Assembly: GCA_900234795.1 (NCBI GenBank)
Contig: LT962688.1
Span: forward strand, 960,001 to 992,000
Length of the DNA: 32,000 bases
DNA from: Methylorubrum extorquens
GTDB lineage: Bacteria > Pseudomonadota > Alphaproteobacteria > Rhizobiales > Beijerinckiaceae
Reading direction: 5' to 3'
Shown: one piece after another, positions 5,122 to 16,875 of the stretch
Numbering within the stretch: position 1 is the stretch's first letter
How the letters are laid out: each line of letters opens with the position of its first letter
Notes under the pieces: model-generated
Databases searched by the model: none
Told to the model about the DNA's origin: nothing
Seen by the model: the letters and a program-made list of their open reading frames with translations, nothing else
Program-made: the position numbers and the translations under genes

Positions 5122-5577
5122 TTGAGCAATGAAGCTGCCAGGACTGTTGGCGCCATCGACCGCATCGACCTCGCTGCCATGATCGTCATGGCTTTTGTTG
5201 CCAAAAATACGTTGCCGGCGAATGATTTACCTCGATTTCTAGCCGAGGTGCACAGCGCGCTGATCGCCTGTGATGGCACTGCGGACACGGACGGGCCGAA
5301 GGCTGAAGTCGAGAAGCCAAGTCCCACCCAGATCAGAAAATCCATCACACCGGACGGCCTGATCTCGTTCATCGATGGTAAGTCATACACGATGCTGAAG
5401 CGGCATCTGAGCAGGCACAACCTCGACCCACAGGGCTACCGCGAGCGCTACGGACTGCATGCCGATTATCCTATGACAGCGTCGAACTACTCAGCGAAGC
5501 GGTCGGCACTCGCGCAAGCAATCGGGCTTGGGCAGCGCATCAGCCGCGCCGGACCAGCATCGCAGACGATCGAGTAA
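5122..5577 (+). CDS. Ros/MucR-family transcriptional regulator, variant lacking the Cys zinc ligands
   Basis: TTG start with GGAG about 8 nt upstream. The N-terminus (LAAMIVMAFVAKNTLPANDLPRFLAEVHSAL) and the C-terminus (KRHLSRHNLDPQGYRERYGLHADYPMTASNYSAKRSALAQAIGLGQ) are family signatures. The CxxC position reads S-F-I-D. Confidence 0.85.
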   Translation: MSNEAARTVGAIDRIDLAAMIVMAFVAKNTLPANDLPRFLAEVHSALIACDGTADTDGPKAEVEKPSPTQIRKSITPDGLISFIDGKSYTMLKRHLSRHNLDPQGYRERYGLHADYPMTASNYSAKRSALAQAIGLGQRISRAGPASQTIE

Positions 5578-5710
5578 GGGCTCGGCAGTTGCGGCGGTAG
5601 TGACAGGAACAGCAGCGACTTGTCCGAGGCGGTTGGTAGCGCCACGTCGAGGGCACGCAGCAGCAGCGAAATCCCTTGACGCTGGGCCTGCAACGACCGA
5701 GCACATCTCC

Positions 5711-6418
5711 GTGGGACATATCGCGCAGACAGAAGCCGCAGGCTTGGTTGGAATCGGGCTCTACACGCCCGCTGAGGCCGGCCGCCTTCTCCTCATCAGC
5801 CCAGCGAAAATCTCGCGATGGCTCCGTGGACACGAGGCCAACGGCAAGCAGTACGAGCCGCTGTGGCGCCCGCAGGTGGACCTGGGCGATGAGGGCATCT
5901 TCCTCGGGTTCCGTGACCTCCAGGAAGTTCGCGTGGCCTCGACCTTCATCGAAAAGGGGCTAAGTGCGCAGCGGGTACGGCAGGCGATCGAACTGGCGCG
6001 CGATCTTGTCGGAGAGGCGCGACCTCTCTCGACCGCGAAATTCAGGTCGGATGGTCGAACGGTCTTCCTTCAGGTCGTCGAGGAGGATGGCCAGACGAAG
6101 CTCATCGATCTGTTCAGGAAGCAGTTCGCGTTCCGGGACGTCATCGAGCGGAGCCTGACCAACCTCGACTATGATGAGGCCGGCGTCCCGGCCGTGTGGT
6201 GGCCGCTCGGGCGCACGAAGTCGGTGAAGATCGATCCGACCCGTTCCTTCGGACAACCGATCGAGGCAGAGACCTCTGTGCCGGTTGATGCTCTGGTGTC
6301 CGCGGTAGAGGCGGAGGGCTCGCCTGAAGCTGCAGCTCGTACCTGGGACGTGCCGATCCGCGCCGTAAAGCGCGCGCTCGCGTTTCGACGCGAGATGGAC
6401 ATGCGGTCGGTAGCTTGA
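5711..6418 (+). CDS. VapB45-like antitoxin candidate (N-terminal HTH-like domain plus C-terminal DUF433)
   Basis: The C-terminus (IDPTRSFGQPIEAETSVPVDALVSAVEAEGSPEAAARTWDVPIRAVKRALAFRREM) resembles DUF433. The size (~235 aa) and the pairing with a downstream PIN-like gene match the Rv2018/Rv2019 architecture. The start is uncertain (GTG 5711 chosen; the ORF is open from 5528). The stop overlaps the next start (TTGA). Confidence 0.55.
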   Translation: MGHIAQTEAAGLVGIGLYTPAEAGRLLLISPAKISRWLRGHEANGKQYEPLWRPQVDLGDEGIFLGFRDLQEVRVASTFIEKGLSAQRVRQAIELARDLVGEARPLSTAKFRSDGRTVFLQVVEEDGQTKLIDLFRKQFAFRDVIERSLTNLDYDEAGVPAVWWPLGRTKSVKIDPTRSFGQPIEAETSVPVDALVSAVEAEGSPEAAARTWDVPIRAVKRALAFRREMDMRSVA

Positions 6419-6825
6419 GGGTTTTTTTTGACAACTGCACCAGCCCTGTGCTGGCCGAAACCCTCGATGGTTATCTCCGGCATCGCAAGGACAGCGCCTC
6501 GCACATTCGCGATCTTCCCTGCGGCAGGGACGCGAGCGACCTGCAGTGGATGGCGTACCTCGCCAGTACGGGGGACGACTGGCTCGTGATCACGGGCGAT
6601 GGGCGAATCAGGAAGAATGGCGCGGAGCGTGCGGCCTTTCGGCAGGTTCGGCTGAAGGGCATCGTCCTCGCGTCGGCCTACCAGAAGACGCCGATCCAGC
6701 AGCAAGCCTCGTTTCTGATCTGGCGCTGGCCCGACGTTGACACTCTCCTACGCCTGGCGGAGCCCCCCTTCTTATTCGAACTTCCGATGAACCGCGAGGC
6801 TAAGATCAGGCCGCTGCCGATCTGA
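6415..6825 (+). CDS. VapC45-like PIN-like (DUF5615/PIN_10-type) toxin candidate
   Basis: 136 aa. It begins (M)RVFFDNCTSPVLAETL, and WLVITGDGRIRKNGAERAAF is typical of the Mut7-C/PIN-like partners of DUF433 proteins. It is translationally coupled to the upstream gene. Confidence 0.55.
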   Translation: MRVFFDNCTSPVLAETLDGYLRHRKDSASHIRDLPCGRDASDLQWMAYLASTGDDWLVITGDGRIRKNGAERAAFRQVRLKGIVLASAYQKTPIQQQASFLIWRWPDVDTLLRLAEPPFLFELPMNREAKIRPLPI

Positions 6826-8115: not shown

Positions 8116-8958
8116 GGGCCTGTTGTCGCTTGAACGGATTGCCAACTCTGGCGTTTTCTCGTTTTCAAGTGAGGAGGCGTGATGCTGTCGGACGCGCAGT
8201 GGGATGAGTTGGAGCCGTTGATCGAGGCCTGTCGCCCAAAGGCCAAGACGCCGCCTCAGGAGCTTCGGCGCACGATCTCGGCCATCCTCTGGCGGCATCA
8301 GAACGGGGCCAAGTGGCGGGCCATCCCCGAGGAATTGGGCCCTTGGTGGCGCGCTGCTCAGATCTTCATCCGGTGGGCGCGCGCCGGGGTGTGGGAGCGG
8401 TTGCTCGACCGCGTGCAGGAGCGCGGTCTCGCACTGGGCATGGTCTTCCTCGACGGCAGCAACGTGCGGGCTCATCAGAAGGCGGCGGGCGCTGCAAAAA
8501 GGGGGGATCTGCGGCCGAGCGAGACCATCGTGAAGCGCTTGGCCGCTCACGTGGCGGCTATGGCACCAAAGCCTGCGTGATCGCCGACGGAGCGGGCCGC
8601 GCCGTCGCCTTCCGCATCGCCCCGGGGCAGGCGCACGAACTGCCCCATGCCATCCCGTTGCTCGACCAATTGCCCGGTGTGCCGAAGTGGGTGGTGGGCG
8701 ACCGCGGCTACTCCAGCCACGGCTTCCGCGACCACATCTGGAAGGCAGGCGCCCGGCCCGCGATCCCGACCAAACGCAACGAGGCCCCGGTCGCCTGCCC
8801 GAGTTGGGTCTACAACAACCGCAACATCGTCGAGCGGCTCTGGGCGCGCCTCAAGGAGTGGCGGGCCGTGGCAACCCGATACGAGAAGACCGCCCTCAGC
8901 TTCACCGGCGTTCTCTGCCTTGCCGCAACGCTCGATTGGATCAAGTGACAACAGGACC
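8116..8958 (+). mobile_element. IS5-family (IS427-like group) insertion sequence, apparently intact
   Basis: The terminal inverted repeats are GGGCCTGTTGTC(G)CTTGA at 8116 and the reverse complement of TCAAGTGACAACAGGACC ending at 8958, with few mismatches over about 18-20 bp. They are flanked by TA (8114-8115) and TA (8959-8960), consistent with a 2-bp target duplication. The element encodes a two-frame DDE transposase. Confidence 0.85.
8179..8948 (+). CDS. IS5-family DDE transposase, OrfA-OrfB fusion by programmed -1 frameshift
   Basis: OrfA is 8179..8580 (MLSDAQWDELEPLI...AILWRHQNGAKWRAIP). OrfB is in the -1 frame to 8948. The slippery run GCAAAAAGGGGGG lies at 8494-8506. DDE hallmarks are VFLDGSNVRAH, VVGDRGYSS and NIVERLWARLKEWRAVATRYEK. 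Confidence 0.8.
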
Positions 8959-9643: not shown

Positions 9644-9687
9644 GGCAGCCCTGACCGCCGTCGATATCTTTCGGTCAGGCGGCTGCC
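9644..9687. repeat. GC-rich intergenic hairpin whose loop carries a conserved 20-mer (copy A)
   Basis: The structure is GGCAGCCCTGACCG-[ccgtcgatatcttt]-CGGTCAGgcGGCTGCC. The 20-mer CCGCCGTCGATATCTTTCGG at 9655-9674 is identical to 10461-10480. The hairpin starts 4 nt after the stop of gene 9691..10224. Confidence 0.6.
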
Positions 9688-10460: not shown

Positions 10461-10480
10461 CCGCCGTCGATATCTTTCGG
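10461..10480. repeat. second copy of the conserved 20-mer CCGCCGTCGATATCTTTCGG (copy B)
   Basis: Exact 20/20 identity to 9655-9674, with partially similar flanks (..GGCGG..GGAT). It sits in the 447-bp divergent intergenic region between 10224 and 10672. Confidence 0.6.
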
Positions 10481-10671
10481 CCCCCTGGCGGTGGATTGAT
10501 CGATGCCGACGCTGAAGACTTGGTGGATCAGGCGAGTTCCGGCGCGATGACGGCGAAGATCGAGCTGTAGTCACCCTCTTTCGCTTGCCGCAGCCGGTGC
10601 GAAAAGAAATCGCTTTCCGGACTCCTGCGCAGCTATGGTCAGGGCATTGCTCAACACGAGAGACATTGCCC

Positions 10672-11895
10672 ATGCCCAATTACGCTATCAATCGCCTGAC
10701 CCTCACCGGTCCAGTGTCCGAACTGAGGCGCTTCGAGAGCGAATGCATCCGCGTTCAACGCGATGAACCCGCTGGGACGCCCGCACTTGATCTCGAGGCG
10801 CTTGTCCCGGTGCCGCCCGAGATTGTGGCCACCTTCGACGACCGATCGGATGAAGCGCGGCAGGCCGCCGTCGCCGCTACCGGGTGCGAGAACTGGCGCG
10901 ACTGGTGCATCCAATCCTGGGGCACGAAGTGGAATACGTGCGACTTCATCGGGCGCATGATCGACGGGATGATCTACGACTGCGTCTTCGACACGGCTTG
11001 GTCGTGTCCGGAGCCGGCCCTGAGAGAACTGGCCGCCAAGTATCCTGCCCTCAGTGGGACCATCGTGTCGTGCGACCCGGCGGACGATTGGTGCCTGATC
11101 GGTACCATCCAGCACGGCTTCTACAGCAGTTCTGCGAGCGCCTACGATCCCCAGATCGACCTGCTGATGTGGGCTGGGTACCAGGAAATGGCATATCCTG
11201 GTGCGCTCATCCACGCGCTGATCGAGAGTGTTTCCGGTGAGAGGGCCGGTGAGGCGAGCCGTGACATGGCTGTGCCCGAGCGCCGGAGGACGATCTTCGC
11301 CGCTCTCGACCAGCGACTTACTCACAGCCTGTGTCGGCGCTTCTACTTCGAGCGGTCGGCCTTGGACGTGCTCGCTCTCCTGGAGGCCGGCCAAAGCGTT
11401 TGGGACATCCGTGAGCGCAATCTCGTGCAGCATCCGGGAAGCGCAAAGGACGTCGCGTTCCTCCTCGGGAACGACCGCATGCGTACTCCGCTCGACCGCC
11501 AACTGCTGATCGGGATGGCGACCGCTCTTCGAGACGACGCGCTGGTGGGCTGTGGTGACAATGAGAAGGCCGCCCGCGATCGACGCACCCGGATCGAGGA
11601 TCAGGTGCTGCCGGACTACGATGAGGACGATCTAAGAGCCTGGGCCGCGGTGGCGATGTACCGGCCGGGTGTGCTGATCGACATGGGGAGCATCGAGGCG
11701 CTCGAGCAGAGCGTCCTCGACTACGCCGATCGCTTGCATGCCGATCTGCTGGCGCACATGGACAGCGGAGGGATCGAGTTCCCCGACCCAATCCGGACGG
11801 AACAGGCGATTGACTGCGCCCTCGAAGCGCTCCGGCTTCCGACGCAGGAAGGCGTTCGCTTTGGGGCTGCCGAGGTCGGATCGAGTAGCCCATGA
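10672..11895 (+). CDS. DUF1281/Api92-like ferredoxin-fold domain protein with a long C-terminal extension (407 aa)
   Basis: ATG at 10672 gives MPNYAINRLTLTGP.... The motifs NWRDWCIQSWGTKWNTCDF and FDTAWSCPEPALRELAAKYP match my memory of the DUF1281 family common on plasmids and ICEs. The C-terminal ~230 aa were not recognised. Confidence 0.55.
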   Translation: MPNYAINRLTLTGPVSELRRFESECIRVQRDEPAGTPALDLEALVPVPPEIVATFDDRSDEARQAAVAATGCENWRDWCIQSWGTKWNTCDFIGRMIDGMIYDCVFDTAWSCPEPALRELAAKYPALSGTIVSCDPADDWCLIGTIQHGFYSSSASAYDPQIDLLMWAGYQEMAYPGALIHALIESVSGERAGEASRDMAVPERRRTIFAALDQRLTHSLCRRFYFERSALDVLALLEAGQSVWDIRERNLVQHPGSAKDVAFLLGNDRMRTPLDRQLLIGMATALRDDALVGCGDNEKAARDRRTRIEDQVLPDYDEDDLRAWAAVAMYRPGVLIDMGSIEALEQSVLDYADRLHADLLAHMDSGGIEFPDPIRTEQAIDCALEALRLPTQEGVRFGAAEVGSSSP

Positions 11896-11995
11896 CGGCC
11901 GACCGGCCTGCGCGAGGATGCATCGGACCAAGAAGACCGAGGTTGCGACGCCTCTACAGGCACAAGCCTCTGGGCGACATCTGCACCGCTCACCG

Positions 11996-12124
11996 TCAGC
12001 CGCGATCCATCAGCTTCCAGCCGAAAACGGCCCCAACTGCGAACGCGACTACGTGGAGCGTGATCCAGACGATCGCGCGTCGGAAGACCCGCACGACAGC
12101 GACCAGCATCAGCAACTCGATCAT
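11996..12124 (-). CDS. unannotated 42-aa hydrophobic membrane peptide
   Basis: Hand translation gives MIELLMLVAVVRVFRRAIVWITLHVVAFAVGAVFGWKLMDRG*. The ATG overlaps the stop of the J-domain gene (ATGA at 12121-12124). Third-position G/C bias is very strong. It is below the 60-aa cutoff of the ORF track. Confidence 0.45.
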   Translation of the reverse strand: MIELLMLVAVVRVFRRAIVWITLHVVAFAVGAVFGWKLMDRG

Positions 12125-12603
12125 TCACGAAGCTCCTTGATCCGCTCGAAGGCGGCGCAGACGGCCTGGAAACTCGCCGTGGCCGCCGCCTTCTTCTCGG
12201 GCGGCCGGCGGTCTGGGTGATAGTGTTGGAGCAGAGCCCGCCGCGCCGCAGCGACAACGACGGTATGGGCAGTCGCTGCGAGCCCCACGCTGCGGTAGAG
12301 CTTGTCCTCCTCGTCGTCCTCGATCGACGCCAGCCGCCCCTGAAGTTGCTCGATCCATGCGTGCGCGGTCGCAAGATCGTGCCGCGTGCTTTCGATCTGA
12401 GTACGGGCCTCGGCAAGCTCGGCACGAACGAGTTCGTGCTTCCCGCGCAGGGCTGAGTCCTCACCCTTGATGCCGAGGACGCTGTCGAGCAGACGCAGAT
12501 TGCGGCGCGTGATGTCAGCGAGCCGTTCCAGGCTCGGGCGAACGGCAGCAAGCTGCGCGGGCGTGTATCGGCCAAAGTTCAATTCGTCGATTTCTAGGAT
12601 CAT
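12121..12603 (-). CDS. coiled-coil protein with a C-terminal J-domain (DnaJ-like, HPD motif)
   Basis: LYRSVGLAATAHTVVVAAARRALLQHYHPDRRPPEKKAAATASFQAVCAAFERI fits the J-domain helix II-HPD-helix III pattern. HPD is encoded at 12211-12219. The N-terminal half is heptad-like (ELVRAELAEARTQIESTRHDLATAHAWIEQLQGRL). There is an ATGA overlap with the upstream gene. Confidence 0.75.
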   Translation of the reverse strand: MILEIDELNFGRYTPAQLAAVRPSLERLADITRRNLRLLDSVLGIKGEDSALRGKHELVRAELAEARTQIESTRHDLATAHAWIEQLQGRLASIEDDEEDKLYRSVGLAATAHTVVVAAARRALLQHYHPDRRPPEKKAAATASFQAVCAAFERIKELRE

Positions 12604-12827
12604 CGCAGCACCAGAGCCGGGAGCAGATTGCCGGTGCCGACGAGAACGCCACGCGCATCCCGGGTCACGTCGGCGCGATGATCGTACTGGCCGACCAAAA
12701 GGCCGCGCGCGTCGCGAGCGACCGTCTTCGTCGTGAGGTGCTGCGTCTCGAGGCGGCCGACGATGATGCCGCGCTTGTCACGGATGATCTGAACCGCTGC
12801 GGGCTGCTGATACGCGGGCGTGTCCAT
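12600..12827 (-). CDS. 75-aa protein made of three RDxRGxxVG repeats
   Basis: The repeats are IRDKRGIIVGRLE, ARDARGLLVGQYD and TRDARGVLVGTGN. The start overlaps the stop of the 420-aa gene (TGATG), and the stop overlaps the J-domain gene start (ATGA). Confidence 0.6.
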   Translation of the reverse strand: MDTPAYQQPAAVQIIRDKRGIIVGRLETQHLTTKTVARDARGLLVGQYDHRADVTRDARGVLVGTGNLLPALVLR

Positions 12828-14089
12828 CAGGCCGCCTCGCTCGCGACGGTCTCAAGCTCTTCGAGGTCGTTGGCGGGCGCCTCGTCGAACTCGACGCCCC
12901 AGCCGGTGTTGTCGGGCTCGGCAAAATTGTACTGGCTCAGTACCTGTGCCGCGGCGGCAACCAAGTCCCCGTCGTCCGGCGCGTGGTCGTAGAGCGCGAC
13001 CCCACAGGCCGCCAGCTTGCGCCGCACGGCAGCCGCGCGCTCCGGCCTTACCTTGCAGTTCTTGCGTGCATAGAGCCCTTCAAGCAGGAAGCCCTGCGTG
13101 GTCACGCGCAGTTCGGCGATGACGCCCGGTTCCGGTGCTGCCGGGCGGTACTCGATGTACACGTAGTTGCCGACGTAGACCTCTCCCGCTTTGCTTTTGA
13201 GGCAGTTTGCGTAACGGCGACCCGCATCCGCCAGTGCGTCGGCCGATCCGAGGGTGACGAGGGTAGGGTCACCGCGGGTGTCGAGCGTGCGCGGCAACCG
13301 GTCAAATCGATAGGTCCACCCCTTGTAAAGCGTCGAGCGATGATCGCCCGGCTTCAATCGTGCCAGGGATGATCGGATCGCCTCACCGGTTGCTTTGGAG
13401 CAGCGCGCCCGAACGTAGGCCAGGGCAGCGTTGAGTTCGGCGACCTGCTTCGTTTCGTTGACACTGGCGACGAACGCCGGATGCAGCAGCATGGGATCGA
13501 GCAGGCTAACGATCTCAATCTGCGCGCCGACGAGGCTGCCGCTCATCTGACCGAGCACCTTCACCCTGTGCCTGTCTGGAGCGGTGGTGGAGAAGAACAG
13601 GCGCTGAAGCTCCCTGTAAGTCTCCGGAGCCCCGACAGGGGCATGCCCTAGCCGCTGCATGGCGCCGAGAAGCCCGTCCGGCACGGTGTCGAAGAGCGCA
13701 CGAACAAGATTGCGCGGGCGGCGTAGCAGCAGGATGGCACGGCCGATCACGGCTGGATCGCTGTTGCCAGGAGCGTCGGTCTCTTCGAGCGCATATCGAA
13801 AACGTTTGGCAATCTCAGCCTGTCCGAGCCAGTCGAAGCTCGCCAGCGCCAGGAACAGGGCCTGCCGACGCGCCGATCCGAAGTACAGGGTCGATGCCAG
13901 CAAGCCAGGACATGCACGATCGAGGATGATGGCTCGATCGAGTGCCCAGCCGGAGTAAGTTTTGGGTCTAGAATGCTTACGATCAGCCGACGAGGGGGCG
14001 GTATTTGATAGCTGCATCATTAGATGCTGCCTTAGATCGAAATTCTCGCAAGCGAAATCGTGTGCACGTTCGAACATGGCCGGGTGCAC
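12827..14089 (-). CDS. 420-aa hypothetical protein, C-terminal region possibly PcfJ-like
   Basis: Long ORF with good coding bias. The segment LVTLGSADALADAGRRYANCLKSKAGEVYVGNYVYIEYR...IAELRV...LEGLYARKNCKV loosely recalls the PcfJ-like pattern (L..EG....HCV..Y......I.S....). This assignment is tentative. Confidence 0.65.
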   Translation of the reverse strand: MHPAMFERAHDFACENFDLRQHLMMQLSNTAPSSADRKHSRPKTYSGWALDRAIILDRACPGLLASTLYFGSARRQALFLALASFDWLGQAEIAKRFRYALEETDAPGNSDPAVIGRAILLLRRPRNLVRALFDTVPDGLLGAMQRLGHAPVGAPETYRELQRLFFSTTAPDRHRVKVLGQMSGSLVGAQIEIVSLLDPMLLHPAFVASVNETKQVAELNAALAYVRARCSKATGEAIRSSLARLKPGDHRSTLYKGWTYRFDRLPRTLDTRGDPTLVTLGSADALADAGRRYANCLKSKAGEVYVGNYVYIEYRPAAPEPGVIAELRVTTQGFLLEGLYARKNCKVRPERAAAVRRKLAACGVALYDHAPDDGDLVAAAAQVLSQYNFAEPDNTGWGVEFDEAPANDLEELETVASEAA

Positions 14090-14133
14090 GCGTATTAACT
14101 ACGATGCTGCCTTCGCCCTAATGGGAGACACAC

Positions 14134-14460
14134 ATGCTTCCCACCAAAAATATGCGCCCTGCTCCGACGATCAGTGTCCCTGATCGCGGTGCAATCTTCA
14201 GCGACATCCTTCGGCGGCAGGCTCTACGCCGCGAGTCACAACTCCCCCTGCTCAACGTGCGGGCCGAGTACGAGCGCGCCGTCGAAGAGGCTCGATGGCG
14301 GGCGCATGTTGAGAAAAACGGCGAGGCCATCCGCGCCCAAGTTCTTGCCGAACTTCGCGCCAAGAACGGGCCTCAGTTCGGAGGCAGCGCTTGCTGCAAG
14401 TGGGCCGTAAAAGTATTGGCTTCAAGAAGGCTCCACGCAATGTTCGACAAGTCGGCTTAG
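14134..14460 (+). CDS. hypothetical protein (108 aa)
   Basis: ATG preceded by GGGAGA. Divergent from the 420-aa gene with only 44 bp between them. Arg/Glu-rich and helical. Confidence 0.5.
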   Translation: MLPTKNMRPAPTISVPDRGAIFSDILRRQALRRESQLPLLNVRAEYERAVEEARWRAHVEKNGEAIRAQVLAELRAKNGPQFGGSACCKWAVKVLASRRLHAMFDKSA

Positions 14461-14650
14461 CTATTTATGCGAGCCTGTATTTCGCTAGCCACAATTGCTT
14501 TACGAAATATGGCAAATGTAAAGCATAAACTAGCAGATAAGCAATAAATTGCTGCTAAGCATTCGAGCATACACTAATAGATCACCACAACGGCCATTTT
14601 TATATTCGGACAGGATGCTATTTACAAGTTATGTAGCATGGTTCGCATCA

Positions 14651-15241
14651 TCACTTCACGTCTCCAAATCCGTCTTTAACCAATTCATCACTCAACTCTA
14701 TCGACTGGCCAGTAAAAATTTGACCAACTTCGACGCCAATATCATGCATGTATTTGATATTTGATTCGTAATACACTTTTATATCCTCTAGCCGCTTCGG
14801 CGACACCGACCAATCTATCTGCTCGAACTCCAAGGGTCGGGGAATCGAGTGCTCGATGATAACTTGAAGTCCAGCACGAAGTCCAGACCGGGTCCACTGA
14901 GGCAAGGGACCATCAGCATTCCAGTCATTCATCGTGACGGGCTGATTTTCGGCGATCTTATGCTCCTGAACTACTGATATTGTCTTGCAAATACTTGAGA
15001 TGAGCTCGCGAACATTCTCTTGTTTTTCCATCATATCCAAAATTTTTCTATATTTTAGAAAAGTTTCGATCATAAACTCAGATTCTTCGCTAATAGATCT
15101 TCCAGAAGATGCCGCAGCCGCAGCAACACGATCCTTCAAATCTTCTCTCACGCGAAATCGAAGCGTTTCAGATTTGCGCTCATCGGCCGATTTTTGCGGA
15201 CGCCCCATTCTTTTCGGCCGCTCGTTTGGTTTTGAGATCAT
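14651..15241 (-). CDS. ribbon-helix-helix (CopG/MobC-like) N-terminal domain fused to an unknown C-terminal domain
   Basis: GRPQKSADERKSETLRFRVREDLKDRVAAAAASSGRSISEESEFMIETFL is an RHH pattern. The start was chosen at the ATG at 15239-15241, which has AGAGGGA upstream; the ORF is open to 15265. The gene is markedly AT-rich relative to its surroundings. Confidence 0.6.
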   Translation of the reverse strand: MISKPNERPKRMGRPQKSADERKSETLRFRVREDLKDRVAAAAASSGRSISEESEFMIETFLKYRKILDMMEKQENVRELISSICKTISVVQEHKIAENQPVTMNDWNADGPLPQWTRSGLRAGLQVIIEHSIPRPLEFEQIDWSVSPKRLEDIKVYYESNIKYMHDIGVEVGQIFTGQSIELSDELVKDGFGDVK

Positions 15242-15534
15242 CCGTATCCCTCTGCGCGCCGGCATTCGTAGCAGTGCCCAAAACCTCGCACAACGACACT
15301 TGCATCACATTTAGTGGTACCATATAGGTTTTTTGAAACACCATAAACATTTTTGTTCCACAAAAATACCTGGATACCTACATGACCAAACGTCCCGCTA
15401 GTCTGACGCGCCTCACGGACCTCAGAAGGATGGCGAAAAAACACGCCAACACCCACGAGACTAATGGAAGACTATTGGTACTTGCATCTGCGATATACAC
15501 CCTTGTGACCACCCATTGTTGCGAATGGTAAATC

Positions 15535-15723
15535 ATGGCCCGCCGCTCGAATGTGTCACAAGCCACCATCATTCGCACCCTGAAAGCTGCACAGAGAGTT
15601 GGCCTAAAAATCAAATGTGTCGAGGTTGATGGCAATAAGATTGTAGTTCATTCGGGAGATGGCGCCCAAGCTGAACCAACGTCGGAACTAGAAGCATGGA
15701 AGGCTAGGCGCAATGCGCGTTAG
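15535..15723 (+). CDS. small DNA-binding / excisionase-like protein upstream of the integrase (62 aa)
   Basis: Its position and 11-nt overlap with the integrase start. MARRSNVSQATIIRTLKAAQRVGLKIKCVEVDGNKIVV resembles the small genes that precede Rhizobiales island integrases. Confidence 0.45.
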   Translation: MARRSNVSQATIIRTLKAAQRVGLKIKCVEVDGNKIVVHSGDGAQAEPTSELEAWKARRNAR

Positions 15724-16762
15724 ATTGAAGGGCTTGAACTCCAAAACTAAGGTCTTAGCGGACGGGACTAAGCGAACCTACTGGTACGCATGGAAAGGAG
15801 GCCCCCGGATCGAGGGCACGCCAGGCACACCCGAGTTCATGGCAAGCTACAGCGCGGCGGTTGCCGAGAAGCGCAAACCCGCGGGCGGCGTCCTCCTTTC
15901 GATCATGCAGGACTTCCAGGCCAGCGACGCCTTCCTCGGCCGCGAACCTCGCACCCGTTCTGACTACGTGCGGCACATCAAAGCGATCGAGGTCGAGTTC
16001 GGCGATTTCCCGCTTGGCGCGCTGACCGACCGACGCACCCGCGGCGAGTTCATGGCATGGCGCGATCGCCTTGCCCTGCGATCCCGTCGGCAGGCCGACT
16101 ACGCCTGGAGCGTGCTCGCCCGCATTCTCTCCTGGGCGCTCGACCGCGGCCTCATCCTGGCCAACCCCTGCGAGCGGGGAGGGCGGCTCTATCGAGCGAC
16201 GCGCAGCGACAGAGTATGGACTGATGCCGACGAGGCTGCGTTCCTCGCATGCGCGCCGGCCCATCTGCATCTGCCGCTGATCTTGGCGCTCTGGACCGGA
16301 CAGAGGCAGGGCGATCTCCTTCGCCTGCCGTGGTCGGCGTACGACGGCAACACGATTCGCTTAAAGCAGGGCAAGACGCGCGCAAGGGTCGTGGTGCCGG
16401 TCGGCGCGCCGCTGAAGGCTGCTCTCGACGCAGCACTGCGTCAGAGTCCGGTAATTCTGGCGAACTCGGAGGGTCGGCCCTGGACCGGCGACGGCTTCCG
16501 CTCCTCGTGGGGCAAGGCTTGTCGCGCCGCCGGTATCACCGGCCTGACGTTCCACGACCTGCGCGGTACCGCAGTGAGTCGGTTGGCACTGGCCGGATGC
16601 TCAGAACCCGAGATCGCGACACTCACCGGTCACGCACTCCGAGACGTCCGCTCAATTCTGGATGCCCACTACCTGAATCGCGACCCGGCGCTCGCGCTTG
16701 CTGCGATCAGAAAGCTCGAAACGAGAACGCAATTTCCCGACCGCTCTCCCGACCGGGCGTGA
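15713..16762 (+). CDS. int: tyrosine recombinase / phage-type integrase
   Basis: 349 aa. The N-terminus (MRVRLKGLNSKTKVLADGTKRTYWYAWKGGPRI) is typical of alphaproteobacterial island integrases. The catalytic region includes GQRQGDLLRL, HDLRGTAVSRLALAG and the distal HY. It ends 40 nt from a tRNA 3' end. Confidence 0.9.
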   Translation: MRVRLKGLNSKTKVLADGTKRTYWYAWKGGPRIEGTPGTPEFMASYSAAVAEKRKPAGGVLLSIMQDFQASDAFLGREPRTRSDYVRHIKAIEVEFGDFPLGALTDRRTRGEFMAWRDRLALRSRRQADYAWSVLARILSWALDRGLILANPCERGGRLYRATRSDRVWTDADEAAFLACAPAHLHLPLILALWTGQRQGDLLRLPWSAYDGNTIRLKQGKTRARVVVPVGAPLKAALDAALRQSPVILANSEGRPWTGDGFRSSWGKACRAAGITGLTFHDLRGTAVSRLALAGCSEPEIATLTGHALRDVRSILDAHYLNRDPALALAAIRKLETRTQFPDRSPDRA

Positions 16763-16801: not shown

Positions 16802-16875
16802 TGGCTGGGGGACCTGGATTCGAACCAGGACTAGCGGAGTCAGAGTCCGCGGTTCTACCGTTAAACTATCCCCCA
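16802..16875 (-). tRNA. tRNA-Gln (anticodon CUG)
   Basis: Hand-folded on the minus strand. The acceptor stem is TGGGGGA/TCCCCCA with discriminator G and an encoded CCA. The T arm is CCTGG-TTCGAAT-CCAGG. The anticodon stem is GCGGA/TCCGC with loop CTCTGAC; the anticodon CTG corresponds to plus-strand cag at 16841-16843. Confidence 0.85.

Follow-up and report, generated by a model that had tools for sequence, protein, structure and literature searches.

An island-borne operon of Methylorubrum extorquens pairs a remote PcfJ-like protein with a predicted class-C J-domain co-chaperone

The described systems closest to the one reported here are three J-domain proteins (J-proteins), namely DjlA, AtcJ and Rki, together with the PcfJ protein of plasmid pCF10 and the toxin-antitoxin-chaperone (TAC) systems. 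In Caulobacter, DjlA provides an efflux-pump case of a membrane J-protein (PMC10754441). AtcJ of Shewanella oneidensis consists of an N-terminal J domain and a tail of 21 amino acids (aa), is chromosomal and serves cold adaptation (PMC6715715). In case of PcfJ and PcfJ-like proteins, no functional study was found in the literature. In our study, 32,000 nucleotides (nt) of Methylorubrum extorquens (contig LT962688.1, positions 960,001 to 992,000; the window hereafter) were analysed, and an operon of four minus-strand genes was found to encode a PcfJ-like protein (A), a mini-protein with three repeats (B), a J-domain co-chaperone (C) and a small two-segment membrane peptide (D). A protein annotated as 'conserved protein of unknown function' shares 100% identity with A, and nothing was found in the literature on the CM4 locus tags. 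We tentatively read the operon, with a confidence that falls a little short of even, as an island-borne, translationally coupled, DjlA-like module which would recruit DnaK and is dedicated to the PcfJ-like client A.

The module resembles DjlA in having the membrane element on the N-terminal side, the J domain at the extreme C-terminus and no DnaJ-type substrate-binding domains, and in each case the presumed role is to bring DnaK to specific clients near the membrane. It differs from DjlA in that C, which has a long coiled coil and lacks a transmembrane segment of its own, is encoded on an island, in an operon that couples it to a PcfJ-like protein; moreover, the NCBIfam DjlA model (PRK09430) gives C only 17.1 bits against a cut-off of 162, over residues 61-159. 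Like C, AtcJ is a short dedicated J-protein encoded in an operon with its partners (AtcJ-AtcABC), to which it binds, whereas the abstract of the source reports neither a membrane element nor a PcfJ-like partner for it (PMC6715715). Rki of phage RB43 is likewise a stand-alone J-protein of a mobile element and acts on host DnaK, as C is predicted to do; unlike C, it is a phage early gene product without coupled partners or membrane tether, and its known effect is sigma-32 stabilisation (PMC3486835). PcfJ of pCF10 (family PF14284) shares with A the domain order, with helices in the N-terminal part and an alpha/beta domain of comparable size at the C-terminus, the aligned motifs G..(H/N)C(V/L) and G..N, and carriage by a mobile element. 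On the other hand, the Pfam model misses A and 92 of its relatives, the His before the Cys is Asn in A, and no J-protein was seen beside the pCF10 gene. With the TAC systems the module has in common a dedicated chaperone component within a small mobile operon, but this component is here a predicted co-chaperone borrowing host DnaK, and no toxin, antitoxin or SecB-like family was matched by the four products or by the divergent neighbour U in Pfam, NCBIfam or PADLOC.

The four open reading frames (ORFs) lie at 12827-14089, 12600-12827, 12121-12603 and 11996-12124, and are joined by start/stop overlaps of 1 or 4 nt (TGATG at 12825-12829, ATGA at 12600-12603 and ATGA at 12121-12124). The chained frames, their overlaps, the His-Pro-Asp (HPD) triplet of C and three RDxRG motifs of B, all described in an earlier note on this DNA, were recovered at the coordinates given here. 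In DNA of 65% GC an open frame is by itself weak coding evidence. All four frames have coding-type GC content at the three codon positions (GC1/GC2/GC3), the gene caller of a public assembly gives proteins of 397, 75, 160 and 42 aa, and the gene order with overlaps of 1 or 4 nt recurs in loci down to ~50% identity (overlaps in the loci labelled L001, L002, L025, L005, L007 and L030). The ratio of nonsynonymous to synonymous rates (dN/dS) was 0.20 in case of the 75-aa gene and lay within 0.3-0.5 for the 42-aa gene; in three of the four comparisons, nonsynonymous change was below the neutral expectation (p<0.1). In five loci the 42-aa gene keeps a constant length of 41-42 codons; a Shine-Dalgarno sequence, AAGGAG (12133-12138), stands 8 nt upstream of its ATG, and GAGG stands 8 nt upstream of the ATG of the 75-aa gene. 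By these comparative sequence measures, all four genes are judged to be real, conserved and under purifying selection.

A first protein of 420 aa had been proposed, and this frame does exist as the longest reading, from GTG 14089. Since the annotated homologues of A start at ATG 14020 and the 23 codons upstream are not conserved, the gene probably starts at ATG 14020 and encodes 397 aa. The overlaps were also said to imply stoichiometric co-expression; they support translational coupling but are no proof of stoichiometry. No sigma-70 promoter was found, and the search for terminators gave one terminator-like site, inside gene B, which is fewer than shuffled sequences yield. A near-palindrome in the spacer between U and A was rejected, being not conserved in L024.

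Protein C (160 aa; 12121..12603, minus strand) was modelled by AlphaFold2 with a predicted local distance difference test score (pLDDT) of 78.6 and helices at residues 15-42, 49-105 (57 residues), 110-127 and 135-159. The predicted coiled-coil helix corresponds to 12289-12459 and the C-terminal J domain to 12124-12303. The HPD triplet (12211-12219, residues 129-131) falls between the helices 110-127 and 135-159, which is the helix II/III loop. It is invariant in 20 relatives of C, down to 24% identity, and V-G-L, A-A-R and the helix-III Phe are likewise invariant in this alignment. The family profile matches ~30 solved J domains (best E 3.8e-5), E. coli DnaJ (1bqz, 1xbl) among them, and two homologues carry a precomputed PF00226 match. 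The comparisons thus show that C has, as judged by homology, a genuine J domain with a strongly constrained HPD behind a long coiled coil, in line with the stand-alone coiled-coil J-domain protein that had been described. No hydrophobic or transmembrane segment was found in the 160 aa, and C has no recognisable substrate-binding domain. On the basis of the family profile, the invariant HPD and the model, C is a class-C (type III) J-protein, in which a coiled coil is combined with a minimal C-terminal J domain.

Protein A (12827..14020, minus strand) had appeared unrecognisable in the earlier note, and its kinship with PcfJ has emerged from Foldseek and hhalign. Its close homologues number 69, all from Methylobacterium or Methylorubrum, and when 1.84 billion cluster representatives were searched with a profile, 560 scored E<=1e-3 and 118 of them E<=1e-30; hence, A is no orphan. 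The AlphaFold2 model (mean pLDDT 76.6) has a well-predicted all-helical N-terminal domain (13307..13948; residues 48-261 of the 420-aa reading, pLDDT mostly >90) followed by a small alpha/beta domain (13016..13273). Residues R52, G116 and Y135 (397-aa numbering) of the N-terminal domain, and N272, C273, G284, N321 and G340 of the C-terminal domain, are nearly invariant in the family. A Foldseek comparison with the viral models of BFVD returned more than 15 PcfJ-like entries with probability 0.85-1.0 at TM-scores (template modelling scores) of only ~0.2, low values being as expected for two-domain proteins. The profile-profile comparison was significant only with an alignment of ten PcfJ-domain sequences (pCF10 PcfJ, which scores 148.9 bits against PF14284 as positive control, and nine phage proteins) and when restricted to the C-terminal domain of A, and under these settings hhalign gave a probability of 88% and E 2.9e-6 over 82 columns. 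It paired GRRYxNCL of the A family with EGxxLxHCV of PcfJ, and a later G..N with G..NR. C273, conserved in at least 90% of 93 sequences, is preceded by Asn in the A family versus His in PcfJ. This single conserved Cys (Asn-Cys at 13202-13207) is the obvious candidate site for any chemistry of A. Taken together, sequence profiles and models indicate that A is a remote, divergent PcfJ-like protein invisible to Pfam.

No match to A itself was found in Pfam, NCBIfam, PADLOC or PHROGs, and a sequence search of the PDB gave no relative. Foldseek hits in the PDB were rejected as fold relatives, none being significant (the NrdF matches had TM ~0.1). The disordered acidic tail of A (12830-12890, pLDDT <50) ends in L..L.EAA, which is conserved throughout the Methylobacterium clade and may be a short docking motif.

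The pairing of A with a J-protein was followed in 17 Methylobacterium-type loci with enough flanking sequence, the window included. The gene of A is followed by that of the J-protein in 16 of them, the exception having a rearranged downstream region. The adjacency is also present at ~35-40% identity of A in L015, where the J-protein follows A, and in L044, where A is followed by a 51-aa two-segment membrane peptide and then by a 139-aa coiled-coil J-protein. In L014 a 45-aa two-segment membrane peptide comes directly after A. In M. aquaticum the gene after A encodes a protein homologous to just the coiled-coil part, without J domain. A gene-neighbourhood search had been proposed as a check on the four-gene set; co-occurrence is indeed conserved, and its centre shifts to A and the J-protein. 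The comparison of loci thus shows a conserved core consisting of A and its J-protein, adjacent across deep divergence.

To this core also belongs U, a helical protein of 108 aa transcribed divergently (14134..14460, plus strand), which adjoins A head-to-head in almost every locus of the Methylobacterium type (E 1e-40 to 1e-55 by jackhmmer) and has no match in Pfam, NCBIfam or PADLOC. The mini-protein B (75 aa; 12600..12827, minus strand), with its three RDxRGxxVG repeats (RDKRG, RDARG and RDARG), had been taken for an integral part of the operon. It is intact in only six of the 17 loci, decayed in four and absent from seven, and is best read as an optional accessory; B-like proteins adjoin distant A homologues in L012 and L017. 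The Pfam RHS_repeat model (PF05593) does not match B, and among eight members of the B family a single one, from L017, just attains the gathering score with 22.0 bits, so that membership of B in the RHS repeats was not established. The B family profile has no sequence match in the PDB.

Some further features of these loci were recorded. Methylobacterium sp. P31 has three copies of the module (L006 and L011, 10 kb apart on the same contig, and L004), two of which flank an integrase, and L004 contains an additional stand-alone J-domain ORF of 90 aa (11724-11996). Two paralogues of A are present in each of L012 and L014. A leader with a GC-rich hairpin (for example GGTCGGCGCG-n6-CGCGCGACC) precedes the start of A by ~50 nt in L004, L005, L006, L009, L010, L011 and L030; it is conserved in the clade with a membrane-anchored J-protein, absent from the clade of the window, and may be a regulatory RNA element.

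The peptide D (42 aa; 11996..12124, minus strand) had been put forward as a toxic membrane effector, and the distribution of membrane elements points elsewhere. In 11 loci the J-protein itself carries a conserved N-terminal two-segment hairpin (…IRILSLPGW.R.WLAV…), whereas in seven loci, including the window, it is soluble and the hairpin is absent. An intact separate gene for a two-segment peptide is present in six of the seven hairpin-less loci versus one of the 11 hairpin-bearing ones (Fisher p = 0.0025, ignoring shared ancestry), and frameshifted remnants of it occur in two further hairpin-bearing loci. Among the 17 Methylobacterium-type loci, D is intact in six and a frameshifted remnant in two, and L001, L002, L003, L025 and L005 agree in its length and pattern. 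The peptide gene follows the J gene in Methylobacterium and precedes it in L044, and the latter order reproduces the fused form as two genes. The HPD stays invariant in loci without D. With the exception of L015, a membrane element, fused or as a separate tiny gene, thus travels with the J-protein. By this fusion and fission logic of sequence and gene order, D is best read as a detachable, putative membrane anchor of the J-protein and not as a toxin around which the system is built.

In the mechanism proposed for the window's clade, D would tether the soluble C, which is probably dimeric through its coiled coil, to the inner membrane. By analogy with other J-proteins, the J domain would dock host DnaK-ATP and trigger its hydrolysis, upon which DnaK would clamp a specific client, most likely A and possibly also the hairpin-repeat protein B. 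DnaK may thereby assemble, activate or restrain A at the membrane. Beyond the presence of a J domain, the steps that we infer here derive from established J-protein biology. The pairing of A with a J-protein suggests a link of the PcfJ-like family to host Hsp70 (DnaK) which has not been described before. Since conjugative plasmids and large virulent phages often carry PcfJ-like proteins, and PcfJ of pCF10 is coupled to a gene of the AcrIIA9 family, the module is probably of use to the mobile element, be it for entry, for establishment or in conflicts with other elements, and not to host housekeeping. The defence-like neighbourhoods of distant A homologues keep a defence reading open.

A number of observations weigh against the DnaK recruitment module proposed above. 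Most of the distant A homologues have no J partner, which means that A does not generally need a J-protein. The PcfJ link is remote: Pfam found no domain in any of 93 diverse A-family members, with no PF14284 match at E<=1, and hhalign gave no significant match when the A profile was compared with pCF10 PcfJ as a single sequence. In case of C alone, the Pfam DnaJ model (PF00226) gives E 3.9e-5 and 24.1 bits, below the gathering score of 27.8. Foldseek on the AlphaFold2 models, proposed earlier as a check, led to PcfJ-like viral proteins for A, but for C the J domain was only the top match among non-significant ones (E 1.2, short match). As regards the anchor, sequence homology between D and the fused hairpin was rejected as evidence (z<2 in 16 of the 18 shuffling comparisons), so that the anchor reading rests on architecture and on presence and absence. 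Moreover, the soluble-J Methylobacterium loci form one clade and are hence not independent, and in L015 the J-protein is soluble with no peptide.

The distribution of PcfJ would also suit a different role, that of anti-defence or establishment cargo, in which A disables a host barrier after arrival of the island while C, D and DnaK are helpers of folding and assembly only. The PcfJ domain was found in 449 phage records, mostly of virulent Herelleviridae; on pCF10 (L033, 10874-12984) the stop of an upstream gene, which bears the annotation Cas9 inhibitor AcrIIA9 family, is overlapped by the PcfJ gene, the two being translationally coupled, and ArdA and ssb genes lie elsewhere on the plasmid. 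The module itself lies within a few kb of an integrase in several loci. We nevertheless hold this role to be unlikely, for none of the components matches an anti-defence protein already known, close relatives of A are absent from the phage collection and from IMG/VR and only one plasmid has a relative, and no conjugation genes were seen within the window.

Quite unlikely, in our judgement, is a hijack of the Rki type, whereby C would target DnaK itself, by titration at the membrane or by sigma-32 stabilisation, with A as sensor or regulator in place of client; the host would then be reprogrammed for the benefit of the element, or DnaK-dependent invaders would be starved. Rki is a precedent, as a mobile-element J-protein without generic co-chaperone activity whose toxicity needs DnaK and the J domain (PMC3486835), and the build of C, a minimal J domain and a coiled coil with no recognisable substrate-binding domain, would be compatible with it. 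Against it, the coupling with A, B and a membrane element is tight and conserved, which speaks for a specific local client, and the L019 partner, which keeps the coiled coil and has lost the J domain, indicates that the coiled coil has a role of its own with A.

The switch favoured in the earlier note, a chaperone-dependent toxin/antitoxin or abortive-infection system, would make D a membrane toxin held or released by the J-protein with DnaK, or by A. The shortness, strong hydrophobicity and two segments of D, together with its own strong Shine-Dalgarno sequence, are what such a toxin might show, and small membrane peptides come directly after A in L014 and L044. Other distant members of the A family stand alone, often beside WYL/WCX regulators and UvrD-PDDEXK helicase-nucleases or near SIR2/Abi_alpha genes, which is a further point in its favour. 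In detail, among the distant loci L012, L043 and L045, WYL/WCX neighbours were seen in three and a UvrD-PDDEXK protein of 1050-1070 aa in two. Even so, this switch appears very doubtful, because most of the loci that retain A and a J-protein with intact HPD either lack D or have it frameshifted, and an equivalent hairpin is there fused to the J-protein itself. Features of type I toxins or holins were sought for D, and no promoter-like site, Rfam RNA or nearby lysis gene was found; nor was an antisense or separate promoter signal. As had been supposed, no described defence or toxin-antitoxin family is recognisable: the weak DnaJ match was all that Pfam, NCBIfam, PADLOC and PHROGs gave for the products, and PADLOC-DB v2 had no defence match for A, B, D or U and only weak stray matches for C (LmuB E 0.0019, Cas6 E 0.0026).

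That the four small genes are unrelated, have no function in common and merely happen to be neighbours on a decaying island is barely credible, for although B and D are often lost and the island also holds an insertion sequence (IS) fragment and a toxin-antitoxin pair, the order of A and J and the overlaps persist over a range of 25-85% identity and on metagenomic contigs that are otherwise unrelated, and all four genes are under purifying selection.

The operon sits on a genomic or mobile island, as had been proposed. A tyrosine integrase gene (15713..16762, plus strand; Pfam Phage_integrase, E 6.7e-14) abuts tRNA-Gln (CTG) (16802..16875, minus strand; ARAGORN and Rfam), the likely insertion site, and the GC3 of coding frames is ~0.75 to the left of the tRNA and ~0.9 to its right. 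No second copy of the tRNA end (att) was found within the window, so that the far border of the island lies outside the window or has decayed. The island further carries an acyltransferase gene and a DUF433-like gene (5528-6418, plus strand; weak match, E 0.0025) which overlaps a PIN_10 gene (6415-6825, plus strand; E 3.8e-21), a pair that looks like a toxin-antitoxin pair. A transposase fragment of the IS4/5 family (DUF4096; 8179-8580, plus strand; E 1e-20) points to decay of the island. Two perfect copies of a 20-nt direct repeat, CCGCCGTCGATATCTTTCGG, occur at 9655-9674 and 10461-10480, 806 nt apart. Converging on the operon is an ORF of 436 aa (10585-11895, plus strand) with a short Api92/DUF1281_C-like stretch and a match to phrog_12644 (E 8e-14), which does not adjoin the module in related loci. 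Between the operon and the integrase, within 14000-15500, lies a patch of low GC content (44-50% vs ~64% around it) containing an ORF of 204 aa (14651-15265, minus strand) with weak Arc/ribbon-helix-helix-like matches at its N-terminus; this patch is not conserved among related loci.

This study has revealed a locus that is more structured than could be seen in the earlier note, and what is new is the attachment of a proposed client-dedicated J-protein module to a widespread PcfJ-like family. Pfam misses a large alphaproteobacterial branch of this family, that of the 560 cluster representatives. To the few J-proteins dedicated to a client (DjlA, AtcJ and Rki), the module would add a bacterial case carried by a mobile element. 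A PcfJ branch wired to its own J-protein and putative membrane anchor also offers a concrete, cheap experimental handle, through an HPD mutant, DnaK dependence and localisation. It can further be speculated, as an extension that we hold to be unlikely at present, that PcfJ-like proteins are membrane-associated mobile-element effectors gated by host Hsp70, which the tethered J-protein licenses or restrains, and that the module would then constitute the first example of a DnaK-dependent conflict system, be it defence or counter-defence. If this is true, the state of the host chaperone pool would be part of the conflict decision.

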